From the sequence record DRR378314_166: a stretch of DNA of 64,000 nucleotides; one strand, 5' to 3'. The notes under the pieces were generated by a model, which was given only the letters and a program-made list of their open reading frames with translations, did not search any database and was not told the DNA's origin. Numbering within the stretch: the first letter of the stretch is position 1; every line of letters starts with the position of its first letter. Shown piece after piece: positions 56,244-61,250 of the stretch. The position numbers and the translations under genes were made by a program.

Positions 56244-56501
56244 TTATCCGATTTTTTCTTTTAGGGCCTGAATCTCAAGGGCGGCGTCAGCCAGTAGATT
56301 TCGCAACCGTGCATTTTCCTCAGCGACATGTTTGAGTTGCTGGGTTTTAGCTGATGCTGTTTGTTGCTGTTGTTTCCGCCAACGATATAGCGTGGCCTTG
56401 GAAACCCTGTATCGGTCGACCAGTAATTTGATATCAACGCCACGTTCGAGTTCTGACAGAATTTCAGCTCTATGTTCGGCGGATAAGTGTTCATTTGTCA
56501 T
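56244..56501 (-). CDS. Small HTH plus coiled-coil protein resembling IS3-family OrfA; last gene of the reb run
   Basis: VSKATLYRWRK HTH and EENARLRNLLADAALEIQALKE zipper. No OrfB or terminal repeats seen. Confidence 0.7.
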   Translation of the reverse strand: MTNEHLSAEHRAEILSELERGVDIKLLVDRYRVSKATLYRWRKQQQQTASAKTQQLKHVAEENARLRNLLADAALEIQALKEKIG

Positions 56502-56537
56502 TTGCTGTTCACTCTTTTGTCCGGGGGCGTTTCAAAT

Positions 56538-56864
56538 TCATTTACCCATCTTGCTAACTACATTCTGGATCGCGGCCAGATTTTCAGCCACGCCGCTGCC
56601 ATTGACCAATGCCTGAGACGCTTTTGCGGCGGCAACTGGATCTGTGGCAATCAACTGCCGGGAGGCCGCCAATGTAATGGCGTTGTGGATGGAGTAACTG
56701 TGTTGTTGCTGTGAAATCACATTCTGCAATGCAAGTCCAATGCTATGGGCCATCTGTTGATACAGCATGCCGACAGCTTCAGCGGGAGCTTCTCCGACAA
56801 CCTGCAAATTTGTCTGGCCAATTGCATCCGTGATCTGGCTATTTACGTAATCTTCTTTGCTCAT
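56538..56864 (-). CDS. RebB family R-body protein
   Basis: VNSQITDAIGQTNLQVVGEAPAEAVGMLYQQMAHSIGLALQN..SQQQ. Confidence 0.92.
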   Translation of the reverse strand: MSKEDYVNSQITDAIGQTNLQVVGEAPAEAVGMLYQQMAHSIGLALQNVISQQQHSYSIHNAITLAASRQLIATDPVAAAKASQALVNGSGVAENLAAIQNVVSKMGK

Positions 56865-56906
56865 TTACGGCTCCTGCCTTGTGTTGCATCCGATTGAGCC
56901 CGTCAA

Positions 56907-57272
56907 TTAATCGGGAATGTTGCGGGAACGCGACCTGGCTTTCTTTTTTTTGCGTTTGCTGCTTTTGGTGCGTCTTCCATTTTCAATAATGATCGGCGGC
57001 AGGGCAGACGCGACTGTTCGGCTCGCTTGTGGCTGTAGAATAAGTTGAACATTCTGCGCCAGAGATGCTAGGCTTATTGAATTCATATGCTGTTGGTTGG
57101 ACACGGAATTTTGGAAGGCCGTTCCCATTGACTGGGACAAGGTCTGATATAAGGCGCCAAGCGAATGTGCCGGCGCCATTCCTGTCAACATTGTGTTGGA
57201 CTGTGTGACAGCGTCGGTGATCTGACTGTTGACGCTTCGGATGGTATTTGGTCCGCTCTTGGACGATGACAT
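56907..57272 (-). CDS. RebB family R-body protein with polybasic C-terminal tail
   Basis: VNSQITDAVTQSN....G.APA.SLG.LYQ...QS.G...QNSV.NQQ; tail RRTKSSKRKKKKARSRSR. Start at ATG 57272 with GGAGAAG RBS. Confidence 0.9.
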   Translation of the reverse strand: MSSSKSGPNTIRSVNSQITDAVTQSNTMLTGMAPAHSLGALYQTLSQSMGTAFQNSVSNQQHMNSISLASLAQNVQLILQPQASRTVASALPPIIIENGRRTKSSKRKKKKARSRSRNIPD

Positions 57273-57302
57273 TGGCTTCTCCACTATCTCCACGAAAAGT
57301 GT

Positions 57303-57355
57303 GTCTGAACTTCACCGTAGTGGGCCGGGGGTTAGGCCAGCGGTGAAGTTCAGAC
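57303..57355. repeat. Perfect 15-bp inverted repeat (intercistronic stem-loop) in the reb operon
   Basis: GTCTGAACTTCACCG (57303-57317) pairs with CGGTGAAGTTCAGAC (57341-57355), with an inner GGCC/GGCC pair. No U tract. Confidence 0.9.
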
Positions 57356-57389
57356 GTGGACCCTTGCTTCTGGGACCGCCAGTTAAGGC

Positions 57390-57752
57390 TTATCCGTTAT
57401 TGAAGCTCGGGGTGTTGACATTCCGGTCTTTGTCATAAGCTGCCATAACACCTTTAAGGGAACTCATGCTTTCAGCAATCGGATTGCCACTCAGGATTTC
57501 CTGGGTAGCTTTGCCTGTTGTCGCTGTATCCAGAGTGTAAAGAAGCGTGACAGCCCCGGTTACAACTGCGCTATCAATGGAATTTTTATGCTGCTGATTG
57601 GCAACCATATTTTGCATGCTCATACCTGTACTTTGGGCAAGCATCTGATACAGCATACCCATTGACTCTGCAGGGGCATCGCCGAGTACCTTGACGTTTG
57701 ATTGGGTCACCGCATCGGTGATTTGACTGTTCATCCATGTGTTCTCAGCCAT
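57390..57752 (-). CDS. RebB family R-body protein
   Basis: MNSQITDAVTQSNVKVLGDAPAESMGMLYQMLAQSTGMSMQN.V.NQQ; RBS AAGGAG. Confidence 0.95.
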   Translation of the reverse strand: MAENTWMNSQITDAVTQSNVKVLGDAPAESMGMLYQMLAQSTGMSMQNMVANQQHKNSIDSAVVTGAVTLLYTLDTATTGKATQEILSGNPIAESMSSLKGVMAAYDKDRNVNTPSFNNG

Positions 57753-59457: not shown

Positions 59458-59460
59458 GAT

Positions 59461-59907
59461 TTAACCTCCCATTTTTTTGACAATGCTATCCATTGCCACG
59501 GCTGTTGCCGCGATGGCATCTGCGGTGATCCCGGCAATTTCCTGACTGGTCTGTGCGCTTAACGCGGTCGCGCCTGCGGTGGAAACTGAGTTAAGACCTG
59601 TAACCGCAGTTGTTGTCTGAGAGTTTATGGCTTCAGTGATAGCAGCGGTCTGAGCATTGTAAGACCCTCCTATAGTTGTTTGCTGGGCACTGAGGACAGC
59701 GGCTTCTGCATTCTTAAGTGTGGTCAGCAGGTTTCCATTTGCTGTATTCACACTGTTGAGGATGCCCGCGTTAATGGCTGCATTTTCAAGCGCAATACCC
59801 GAGGAATGGGCAACAAATTGATAGAGCAGTCCCATTGCAAAATTCGGCGACTCTTCCACATTTGCATATAGGCTCTCCAACTTTGGAGGAGGGGGTTTAT
59901 CAGACAT
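59461..59907 (-). CDS. Divergent Reb-like Ala/Thr/Ser-rich protein
   Basis: ESPNFAMGLLYQFVAHSSGIALENA resembles the second half of the Reb core; AINSQTTTAVT appears later. Start at ATG 59907 with GGAGA RBS. Confidence 0.65.
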   Translation of the reverse strand: MSDKPPPPKLESLYANVEESPNFAMGLLYQFVAHSSGIALENAAINAGILNSVNTANGNLLTTLKNAEAAVLSAQQTTIGGSYNAQTAAITEAINSQTTTAVTGLNSVSTAGATALSAQTSQEIAGITADAIAATAVAMDSIVKKMGG

Positions 59908-59956
59908 ATGGTCTCCAGGTAAAACAATAAGTAAGGAACTAGGGGGCACTATCGAC

Positions 59957-60352
59957 TTAGTCGCTTTGAGGTTTTCCTTCAGTTCCTTCCACTGTTTCAG
60001 AGGACGTAGGGGATTTTTTGTCTTCTGCAGTTTTCATATCTCTTCCTTCGGAAGCCGCTAGCATCTGCTCCCAGTTTTTTAAGCGATCGGAAATTGACAG
60101 TTCCGCGACCTGATCGTTCATTCCGCTCCACAATAAATTACCGGTTCCAGCGGCGATGGTTGCTGTTCCCAGGATATTTCGGTTCTGCTGCGTGGCTACA
60201 GTGCCGAGACTACTAATACCTGCGGCTTGAGCCATTGTGACATACATGGCAGCCATAGCTGTTGAGGCGGCGCTTCCCAATACAATTTCATTGACCTTAA
60301 CAACTGATTCAGTGACTCGATCGTAATATTCAGTCTTATTATTCTCAGACAT
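59957..60352 (-). CDS. Divergent RebB-like protein
   Basis: RVTESVVKVNEIVLGSAASTAMAAMYVTMAQAAG....ATQQN aligns by eye with QITDAVTQSNVKVLGDAPAESMGMLYQMLAQSTG...ANQQ. Confidence 0.75.
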   Translation of the reverse strand: MSENNKTEYYDRVTESVVKVNEIVLGSAASTAMAAMYVTMAQAAGISSLGTVATQQNRNILGTATIAAGTGNLLWSGMNDQVAELSISDRLKNWEQMLAASEGRDMKTAEDKKSPTSSETVEGTEGKPQSD

Positions 60353-60403
60353 GACTTTTTCATCCTTCTAAATACTAAATTTTACAGACATTAATATTTG
60401 TTG

Positions 60404-60431
60404 AGACGGTTTTTTACTTGGAAGTATGAAA
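60404..60431 (-). promoter_or_regulatory. ECF-type promoter candidate, copy 2 (TTTCATAC-N14-CCGTCT)
   Basis: 52 nt upstream of start 60352; same spacing as copy 1. Confidence 0.7.
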
Positions 60432-60605
60432 ATTTATTTCGAACTTATTTGAATTTAACTGACACCGACTGAATAAATCATATTTTCTCTAAAAAGAAGT
60501 AAAGAAAATATAAAAAGCACTTTAAAAGTGTATAAATCAACTTATATTAAGTTTATAATCTGAAAAGACACTTTTTAGGTGCATTTTTGTTAAAGGAGAA
60601 GGGCT

Positions 60606-61250
60606 TTGTCTCAGTCGTCAGCTCAACAAAAGGTTTCATCTATGGATGTCGCCTCACTGGATAAAGGCGGAACCGGGGGGCTGCCGAAACAACCGAAAAA
60701 GAATGCTGAAGATATTGCTGCTGAAGCCCGGTTTTGGGCTGTTTGGAACGAACATCGGGATTATTTAAAACGCTTAAGTATGCTGTGGATGAATATCAGC
60801 GCGATGGAAGCCGAAGATGCGCTGAGCGATGCGACTATTAGGGCGTTGGAGAAGTTTAAAATTCATGAGAAAAACATAATTAATGAGCGGGCGTGGTTTG
60901 CGCGCCTATTGCATAATATTTGTATTGATCGGCACCGGTCCAATCGTCGGCGTGTCCAATTAGGCGATAAGCTCAAGGAAATTAAAGATATAAATGAAAC
61001 CGTGATTAAGGTGGAGGTTGGAACGCCTGAGGGGCATCTTCTTAATCTGGAGCTTGGGCGTGTATTACGTGCTAAAATAGAGCAGTTGCCTGATAAATTG
61101 CGTGGTCCCCTGATCATGCGATTGGTCCAGGGGGAGACATATGCGGAGATTTCCCAAAAACTCAATATTTCTAATGACAATGCGCGAAAGCGGGTTCAGC
61201 AAGCCAGAGCCATTTTGCGAAAGGATCTTGAGTTTTTTCAGCGAGGGTAG
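60606..61250 (+). CDS. ECF-type sigma-70 factor associated with the reb locus
   Basis: Region 2 EAEDAL...RAW..R.L.N.CID..R; region 4 LP..LR.......G.TY.EIS..LNIS..N.RKR...AR..L. TTG start with AAGGAG RBS. Confidence 0.92.
   Translation: MSQSSAQQKVSSMDVASLDKGGTGGLPKQPKKNAEDIAAEARFWAVWNEHRDYLKRLSMLWMNISAMEAEDALSDATIRALEKFKIHEKNIINERAWFARLLHNICIDRHRSNRRRVQLGDKLKEIKDINETVIKVEVGTPEGHLLNLELGRVLRAKIEQLPDKLRGPLIMRLVQGETYAEISQKLNISNDNARKRVQQARAILRKDLEFFQRG

Follow-up and report, generated by a model that had tools for sequence, protein, structure and literature searches.

A likely R-body locus of Sneathiella that joins a dedicated sigma factor and candidate promoter to an IS3 OrfA-like gene and an acquired methionine aminopeptidase

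R-bodies, coiled and extendable protein ribbons, are implicated in the killing of eukaryotic cells and are under development as protein actuators driven by pH. Here we describe an R-body (reb) locus on a 64,000-nt stretch of DNA from sequence record DRR378314_166, the whole of which is referred to below as the window. An open reading frame (ORF) map of 52-64 kb, combined with family scans, placed at positions 56244-61250 seven Reb-family genes, a divergently transcribed extracytoplasmic function (ECF) sigma factor gene, a type I methionine aminopeptidase (MetAP) gene and a helix-turn-helix (HTH) gene resembling IS3 orfA. The reb genes form two co-oriented units, the first consisting of two diverged, secondary genes that adjoin the sigma gene and the second of five primary genes followed by the HTH gene, so that the minus-strand order of transcription is RebL131 (131 aa), RebL162 (162 aa), Reb5, Reb4, Reb3, Reb2, Reb1 and HTH. 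On the plus strand lie the sigma gene, divergent from the cluster, and the MetAP gene, antisense between the secondary and primary units. An earlier annotation made from the sequence alone (hereafter the original prediction) had named five canonical tandem Rebs, two divergent Reb-like genes, a sigma factor of the cluster's own facing away from them and a map gene in the cluster's middle. All of these were borne out, as were the gene coordinates, apart from corrected start codons for three genes (MetAP, RebL162 and Reb2) and the addition that map, a plus-strand gene, runs antisense to the reb genes. Statements attributed below to published work refer to the available parts of each source.

Six of the seven Reb-family proteins scored above the gathering cut-off (24 bits) of the RebB Pfam family PF11747, at 41.8-92.4 bits, and the five tandem genes, all on the minus strand, scored 71.5-92.4 bits in this hidden Markov model search. 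They are Reb5 (58173-58514; 113 aa; 82.9 bits), the first gene of the primary unit; Reb4 (57797-58117; 106 aa; 77.0 bits); Reb3 (57390-57752; 120 aa; 92.4 bits), the best-conserved paralogue, 75-93% identical among the Sneathiella-type loci defined below; Reb2 (56907-57293; a 128-aa ORF with a probable start at ATG 57272; 76.1 bits); and Reb1 (56538-56864; 108 aa; 71.5 bits), whose orthologues are 67-82% identical. The motifs VNSQITD and QN-x4-QQ are invariant in these five proteins, which carry the QITD, NAV-type and QQ signatures named in a published reb survey, where QITD, NAV-type and QQ(Q) are proposed as the marks of primary Rebs (PMC13430693). Reb2 combines a canonical N-terminal half with a variable C-terminal tail (RRTKSSKRKKKKARSRSR, window 56907-57000), the fastest-evolving part of the cluster, which is strongly basic here and in the nearest relatives (L001, L002 and L032) and Pro/His-rich in the clade that has no embedded MetAP gene.

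The secondary genes are more diverged. RebL131 (59957-60352, minus strand) adjoins the sigma gene, matches PF11747 at 41.8 bits and has orthologues of 30-57% identity. RebL162 (59461-59949, minus strand), with a probable start at ATG 59907 that gives a protein of 148 aa, is alone among the seven in having no Pfam match at E<=0.01 (PF11747, E=0.5). Its profile aligns with that of the canonical Rebs (hhalign probability 96.6%, E=6.9e-10), all 11 of its orthologues that were scanned match PF11747 at E<=1 (best 9.4e-14), and the Oceanibacterium orthologue retains an N-terminal VNEQTTD motif; judged by these matches, RebL162 is a true, diverged Reb. QITD is missing from both secondary Rebs; RebL131 retains QQ, and RebL162, which is 63-80% identical across Sneathiella, has no QN..QQ and carries a long C-terminal half rich in Ala, Thr and Gln. 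Lost motifs, Pro-rich N-terminal and extended C-terminal regions and Pro-rich tails are the traits given for secondary Rebs (PMC13430693), and RebL131, RebL162 and Reb2, compared by description only, fit the secondary groups of that survey. Diverged Reb-like partners are themselves in print (PMC3583457, PMC7826278, PMC8322103, PMC13430693). In Caedibacter, the minor or non-incorporated RebD and RebC are required for correct rolling (bioRxiv 10.64898/2026.05.21.725848), and by analogy the secondary Rebs may be minor or assembly components.

A scan with a Reb alignment over one genome per prokaryote species returned 518 reb loci, and all window proteins were compared by tblastn with the best 77 of these, taken with 10-kb flanks and numbered here with the prefix L. 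Gene order is shared by 29 Sneathiella/Sneathiellales loci (L001-L025 and L032-L035, L005 and L033 being two contigs of one metagenome-assembled genome, MAG), in which all seven reb genes are one-to-one orthologous. This Sneathiella-type order runs from the sigma gene (opposite strand) through RebL131, RebL162, the MetAP gene where present (opposite strand), Reb5, Reb4, Reb3, Reb2, Reb1 and HTH to recQ, with recQ flanking the locus on one side and a DEAD-box helicase gene on the other. The nearest named relative is S. limimaris (MetAP 80% and HTH 78% identical). Six more alphaproteobacterial loci, from Oceanibacterium (L026), an Acetobacteraceae MAG (L027), Rhodocista pekingensis (L028), Skermanella (L029 and L030) and Eilatimonas (L031), serve as outgroups; they carry the sigma gene (41-48% identical), six to nine Reb-like matches and the HTH gene (31-37%), the last always directly after the final reb gene and on the same strand. 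The other 42 of the 77 loci (from Chromobacterium, Dyella, Paraburkholderia, Alteromonadaceae, Verrucomicrobia and others) contained no HTH and no MetAP match, and only two of them gave a sigma match, both weak.

Synteny across the Alphaproteobacteria thus returns the same design in the 29 Sneathiella-type and six outgroup loci. By gene order and orthology, the window locus is the chromosomal reb locus of a Sneathiella species, and that locus is genus-wide and vertically inherited. The original prediction had called it expanded, a relative term that does not apply to this genome in particular, since each of the seven Reb-family genes has a one-to-one orthologue throughout the genus. Separately, one complete Sneathiella-type locus with recQ and helicase synteny (L009) comes from a record titled as a Pseudomonas marincola MAG; it groups with Sneathiella in the RecQ tree, and its bin label is probably wrong.

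The sigma factor (60606-61250, plus strand; 214 aa) matches TIGR02937 at 67.1 bits (cut-off 42.9) as well as PF04542 and PF08281, and contains regions 2 and 4 only, with no region 3 match. A family scan of its neighbours found no anti-sigma domain, the neighbour on its far side being a DUF1801 gene. Orthologues occur in 25/29 Sneathiella-type loci, the remaining four being cut at contig edges, and in 6/6 outgroup loci.

When the 226 nt upstream of the first primary reb gene were aligned for the window and 28 loci, a bipartite motif was conserved in 29/29 sequences: T(C/T)TCACA, usually followed by TCTCA, and then CGTCT(T) sixteen bases after TCACA. In the window this candidate ECF-type promoter, TTTCACA-N16-CGTCT, occupies 58570-58601 on the minus strand, its -10 element about 58 nt ahead of the Reb5 ATG and its TCAC and CGTC blocks aligned in all 29 sequences. 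A weight matrix built without the window sequence ranked this site first in the 64 kb, with a full-matrix score of 9.6, the only one at or above 8; with the -35 and -10 columns alone it scored 17.2, the next best site in the window reaching 13.8. In the outgroups, the motif lies no more than about 150 nt upstream of a reb gene in 5/6 loci (scores 17.3-21.3) and upstream of the sigma gene itself in 4/6 (L026, L029, L030 and L031; 14.3-21.3). Overall, 17 scores of at least 13 were found in about 218 kb of outgroup strand sequence, as compared with about 4 expected from the background of 42 unrelated reb loci (29 such scores per 1.51 Mb of strand sequence). The occurrence of the motif before both reb and sigma genes in the outgroups is the usual pattern of a cognate ECF promoter with autoregulation, and the cluster's sigma factor is therefore probably the reader of TTCACA-N16-CGTCTT. 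A further site ahead of the secondary reb unit (60404-60431) scored 11.3, with five other window sites at 11 or above, and is a possible promoter of that unit.

A pattern drawn by eye from two window sites, TTTCAYAC-N14-CCGTCT, did not transfer to the relatives as an exact pattern and was dropped. High-scoring TTCACA-N16-CGTC copies were also seen elsewhere in three outgroup loci, all on the plus strand (L027, 11932-11962; L030, 8016-8046; L029, 1356-1386); the ORFs behind them are unmatched by the Reb queries and could be additional members of the regulon, or Reb-like genes that have diverged very far.

Two palindromes in the intergenic regions are conserved. The first, TG(C/A)GA-N4-TCGCA (58629-58642; TGCGA-N4-TCGCA in the window), lies about 27 nt upstream of the -35 element of the reb promoter in all 29 sequences, its columns near-invariant in the aligned upstream regions, and is kept in MetAP-bearing and MetAP-less loci alike. 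It is followed by a box, AAGAAAAT (58609-58620), that is near-invariant in the same 29 regions. Reading the two boxes upstream of the -35 element as an inverted repeat of one another gave only 3-7 of 9 matches, and the internal palindrome alone was retained. The second, CACTTT-T-AAAGTG (60518-60530), sits in the divergent spacer between sigma and rebL131, 76 nt ahead of the sigma start, and is the only window site at one mismatch or fewer (0.10 matches expected). It recurs exactly, once each and at the equivalent place, in 14 loci, and forms a near-invariant block in 26 aligned regions, within an AT-rich spacer. From this conservation both are candidate operators, the second for sigma expression.

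The HTH gene (56244-56501, minus strand; 85 aa) is the last of the primary unit, 36 nt past Reb1. Its product, an HTH and leucine-zipper protein, matches PF01527 (HTH_Tnp_1) at 37.6 bits, and the IS3 transposase model NF033516 aligns to it at model positions 2-80 only, out of 369. An AlphaFold model from a 13-sequence alignment (pLDDT 83.9) predicts a three-helix HTH domain whose last helix runs for 50 residues, with a heptad register of L56/V59/N63/L66/L70/A73/I77/L80/I84; parallel dimeric zippers typically show such an a/d heptad, with an invariant Asn buried within it. Invariant residues include G21, the recognition-helix motif ATxYRW and, in the zipper, E62-N63-x-R-L.

The gene could in principle be an orphan orfA, left behind without a function by an IS3 insertion. 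In family searches it does match HTH_Tnp_1/IS3 OrfA best, proteins of its type are labelled 'transposase' in public records (the Rhodocista copy is 100% identical to a 'MULTISPECIES: transposase [Rhodospirillales]' protein on a 4.36-Mb contig), and their scores grade into those of true multi-copy IS3 OrfAs. There is also an A-rich run just ahead of the stop codon (AAAAGAAAAAAT, window 56255-56275) that recalls the slippery site between IS3 orfA and orfB; the -1 frame closes after 17 codons, and the run is therefore at most a vestige of such a site. However, the gene is present in 34 loci besides the window, from Sneathiellales and five other genera in several alphaproteobacterial families, always as one copy, directly after the last reb gene and on the same strand, and 33/34 copies are intact at 31-64% identity (that of L024 is cut to 43 aa). 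No ORF for OrfB, the DDE transposase, follows it, the next gene being PhyH-like here and recQ, 40-100 nt away, elsewhere, and no inverted repeats flank it. A dead IS3 remnant would not remain open over such divergence, and we accordingly give this possibility very little weight. The original prediction had noted an IS3-OrfA-like gene at the end of the cluster; identity and position hold, and a mobile-element scar does not fit a single copy conserved in 34 loci. We read the gene instead as a domesticated IS3 orfA rather than a remnant of the element and propose it, from its conserved placement, as a regulator of the cluster: it is probably co-transcribed with the Rebs, and its product might exert feedback at one of the two palindromes.

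The MetAP gene (58720-59457, plus strand; the ORF also opens at GTG 58714) probably starts at ATG 58720, as do 12/13 orthologues, to give 245 aa, and its product matches TIGR00500 at 240.9 bits (cut-off 171.35). Its stop codon and that of RebL162 are 3 nt apart. The closest solved structure is the S. aureus enzyme 1qxw (E=3.2e-58, as compared with about 5e-42 for the E. coli enzyme), and the motifs NIDVS, ADSG, GHGVG, TIEPF and YEHT align with both, including the Asp/Asp/His/Glu/Glu set that we take to be the metal ligands. All 13 embedded orthologues are intact, internal stops flagged in a genome search falling at the edges of the matches, and median pN, the proportion of nonsynonymous differences, is about 0.2 against a saturated synonymous proportion (pS) of about 0.78, over 91 pairs that include invalid L001 pairs (an out-of-frame slice). 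By these measures the enzyme is under purifying selection and functional.

It is not the housekeeping enzyme of the genus. A housekeeping MetAP (305-312 bits) was found in 5/5 Sneathiella genomes searched, and the embedded one (235-256 bits) is additional to it in the 3/3 that carry the embedded gene. Identity of the embedded protein to the Sneathiella housekeeping MetAPs is 32-36%, as compared with 64-74% to the 13 reb-embedded orthologues, and proteins from outside Sneathiella in the database reach at most 60%. On these identities it is a foreign, horizontally acquired second copy. The gene is present in 13/26 informative Sneathiella-type loci (L011, L016 and L033 being uninformative at contig edges); on the RecQ tree its carriers form a grade plus L035, which lies inside the MetAP-less clade, requiring at least two changes. 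The comparison argues for a single acquisition. Where the gene is absent, the spacers were searched for remnants of it; the best match (E=0.39) did not help in telling gain from loss. In metagenomes, 8/80 related MetAP loci (69-72% identical) have the same reb arrangement.

All seven window Rebs have Ala, Pro, Ser or Thr after Met1, and the embedded enzyme may therefore add capacity for Met excision. Over the 29 sequences available for each of the five primary paralogues, the penultimate residue is mostly Ala, Pro, Ser or Thr, with a few Val; the exceptions are six Glu (two in Reb5, four in Reb2) and one Ile (Reb1), possibly an artefact of automatic start-codon choice.

Taken as a whole, we consider it likely that this is the R-body locus of Sneathiella, made up of reb units with a sigma factor of their own, a domesticated HTH regulator and an acquired MetAP. 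In such a scheme the sigma factor would read TTCACA-N16-CGTCTT and switch on bulk Reb synthesis, with the secondary Rebs as putative minor or assembly components in the manner of Caedibacter RebD and RebC. The HTH protein, made from the same transcript as the Rebs, would bind the palindrome at 58629-58642 or that at 60518-60530 and so exert feedback on reb expression, a process which in other R-body producers is either stochastic or under tight repression. The foreign MetAP would have landed antisense between the reb units early in the genus, to be retained by selection, and would add Met-excision capacity during the burst of Reb synthesis.

Several observations speak against this scheme or parts of it. 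The link between sigma factor and promoter is one of co-occurrence. Before the Sneathiella sigma genes the motif was absent, the best score (9.6) staying below the background 95th percentile (10.4), and ahead of the secondary reb unit it ranges from weak to absent, with scores only in the window (11.3) and L007 (11.1). The ECF237 supplement, as far as available, reports no conserved promoter motif (PMC7826278). A Foldseek search of the PDB with the HTH model returned nothing at E<=0.001, generic HTH domains appearing at E>0.7, and the reb-linked HTH proteins grade smoothly into multi-copy IS3 OrfAs, from 135 down to about 97 bits. Our search of the R-body literature found no R-body in any Sneathiella. 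Further adverse points concern the MetAP: it stems from one acquisition only and is missing from 13/26 informative Sneathiella-type loci, 6/6 outgroups and 42/42 other reb loci; the other 72/80 related MetAP loci (42-51% identical) have no Reb, HTH or sigma gene within 4 kb; upstream of it the sigma motif is missing (best score 6.3 over 14 sequences); species with and without it do not differ in their Reb N-termini; and recQ and the helicase gene are equally syntenic, yet functionally unlinked.

The same points favour another account of the MetAP, that it is an unrelated passenger which inserted by chance between the reb units and is kept for general needs of the proteome, for example through a different metal or substrate preference, with no role in R-bodies. 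Its single acquisition on the opposite strand, the lack of a sigma-type promoter, its loss or original absence in half of the informative loci with Reb N-termini unchanged, the pairing with reb in 0/48 other reb loci and 0/72 related MetAP loci, and the two nearest foreign relatives inspected, which sit in unrelated gene contexts, all agree with this. Three points stand on the other side, none of them decisive: the gene has been kept at exactly this spot through divergence that saturates synonymous sites, it and the main reb promoter have a 200-nt divergent control region in common, and every Reb is a predicted substrate for Met excision. On balance we find the passenger account rather probable and a direct link between MetAP and Reb doubtful; for the R-body system, in any case, the MetAP is dispensable. 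The original prediction had named the MetAP within its accessory-gene combination; the gene does not belong to reb clusters in general, being one lineage-specific antisense insertion. A bolder version would make it a dedicated maturation enzyme that strips Met1 from all seven Rebs during a sigma-driven burst and so allows their conserved N-terminal QITD segment to pack properly, with antisense read-through from reb and transcription of MetAP modulating each other and OrfA providing feedback. We regard this as quite unlikely; if true, the cluster would be the first of the R-body type to encode its own processing enzyme together with a switch of transposon origin.

Finally, the Rebs of sigma-linked clusters might have a function different from R-body formation. 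This was raised in the ECF reclassification study, on the grounds that no RebC-like partners occur and that RebB copies are numerous (PMC7826278), and the lack of any Sneathiella R-body in the literature searched agrees with it. Against this, five of the Rebs carry the QITD, NAV-like and QQ signatures (PMC13430693), RebC is in any case unconserved outside Caedibacter (PMC3583457), and the cluster design is common to Rhodocista, in which R. centenum is cited as forming R-bodies and inducing a seven-gene operon (PMC4340629). We therefore hold a function outside R-bodies to be improbable and retain the R-body locus as the preferred interpretation.

The linkage of sigma factor and reb genes has been published as the Group 2 synteny (Raymann 2013, PMC3583457), as ECF237 (PMC7826278) and as FecI2/RcgA of Pseudomonas aeruginosa PA14 (PMC8322103). 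The PA14 cluster consists of rcgA, fecI2, rapA, rebD, rebP1 and rebP2, and its rebP1 promoter requires both FecI2 and RcgA and is expressed stochastically, in 0.26% of cells (PMC8322103); as in Sneathiella, where the regulator is a proposed one, the reb genes adjoin a dedicated sigma factor and a second DNA-binding regulator, but there are three of them rather than seven and the Sneathiella-type locus adds a MetAP. ECF237 factors occur in Proteobacteria, without an anti-sigma neighbour and with 2.4-6.75 RebB-family genes on average (PMC7826278). The window sigma resembles them in having no anti-sigma neighbour and several RebB-family genes around it, and by this neighbourhood is a candidate ECF237 member, a lead taken from the literature; it differs in the conserved candidate promoter before the reb genes and, in 4/6 outgroups, before the sigma gene.

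Among other R-body systems, R. centenum is reported to make R-bodies, and its seven-gene operon RC1_1993-1999 is induced up to 50-fold in cysts (PMC4340629). The R. pekingensis locus likewise has a sigma gene, seven Reb-like genes and the HTH gene, with a promoter motif scoring 21.3, but its Rebs are 40-58% and its HTH 33% identical to those of the window, it has no MetAP, and cyst-linked induction is reported from R. centenum only. The reb operon of Azorhizobium caulinodans, also alphaproteobacterial, resembles the window locus in encoding its own regulator and in its palindromes: it is tightly repressed through palindromic operators, PraR binding CAAC-N5-GTTG (PMC5527310). That regulator, RebR, is of the Crp-Fnr type, however, no sigma gene is described in the available account of the operon (PMC5527310), and neither window palindrome fits the PraR or the RebR consensus by sequence comparison. 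Caedibacter taeniospiralis rebABCD (type 51) combines major Rebs with minor or non-incorporated helpers, to which the secondary Rebs correspond by analogy only; it is plasmid-borne, with four genes and, in the part of the source at hand, no sigma, HTH or MetAP gene described (bioRxiv 10.64898/2026.05.21.725848).

In the R-body papers searched, the words 'aminopeptidase' and 'transposase' were not mentioned; literature searches found no pairing of methionine aminopeptidase with R-bodies, and R-bodies together with IS3 and transposase only in unrelated work. The published reb survey, in its available part, ignored non-Reb neighbours (PMC13430693). Sneathiella was not mentioned in the R-body papers listed by the literature search, nor in two 2026 surveys in their available parts, although supplementary tables may yet name Sneathiella reb clusters. 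The original prediction's view of the accessory combination as undescribed thus holds in part: the sigma-reb core is already known, and the HTH gene, the promoter and the MetAP are additions not found in print. Its further description of a self-contained reb system with a sigma factor of its own agrees with the gene content.

Some features of the surroundings are specific to this strain or to parts of the genus. A DUF1801 gene (61271-61684, minus strand) lies between the sigma and DEAD-box helicase genes and recurs in only 12 of the 77 loci, all MetAP-bearing; it is not found in the MetAP-less clade, L032 or L035, and the MetAP-less clade and L035 have about 5 kb of other genes between sigma and helicase. 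On the other side, a 377-aa gene resembling PhyH/2OG-Fe(II) oxygenases (55024-56157, plus strand; PF05721, 29 bits) lies between recQ and the HTH gene, in a region of low GC content (0.40 as compared with about 0.48-0.5). None of the 77 related loci contains a counterpart, recQ lying there about 40-100 nt past the HTH gene, and this gene looks like a strain-specific insertion. No RNA family was found by Rfam in 54900-62000 at E<=0.1, and a repeat search returned nothing but coding repeats among the Reb paralogues.

To our knowledge, the control that turns on R-body synthesis has been worked out in just two organisms. The locus described here offers a compact comparative handle on this regulation, with one sigma factor, one clear candidate promoter and two conserved candidate operators, and its HTH gene is a proposed case in which a host has taken over the DNA-binding protein of a transposon for regulation. 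Cultured sister species that carry the embedded MetAP, such as S. glossodoripedis JCM 23214 and S. chinensis LMG 23452, and others that lack it, such as S. chungangensis KCTC 32476 and S. litorea, provide a natural experiment on N-terminal processing in assembly. Sneathiella is a common marine genus of the Alphaproteobacteria, to which R-body production is likely extended by these results.

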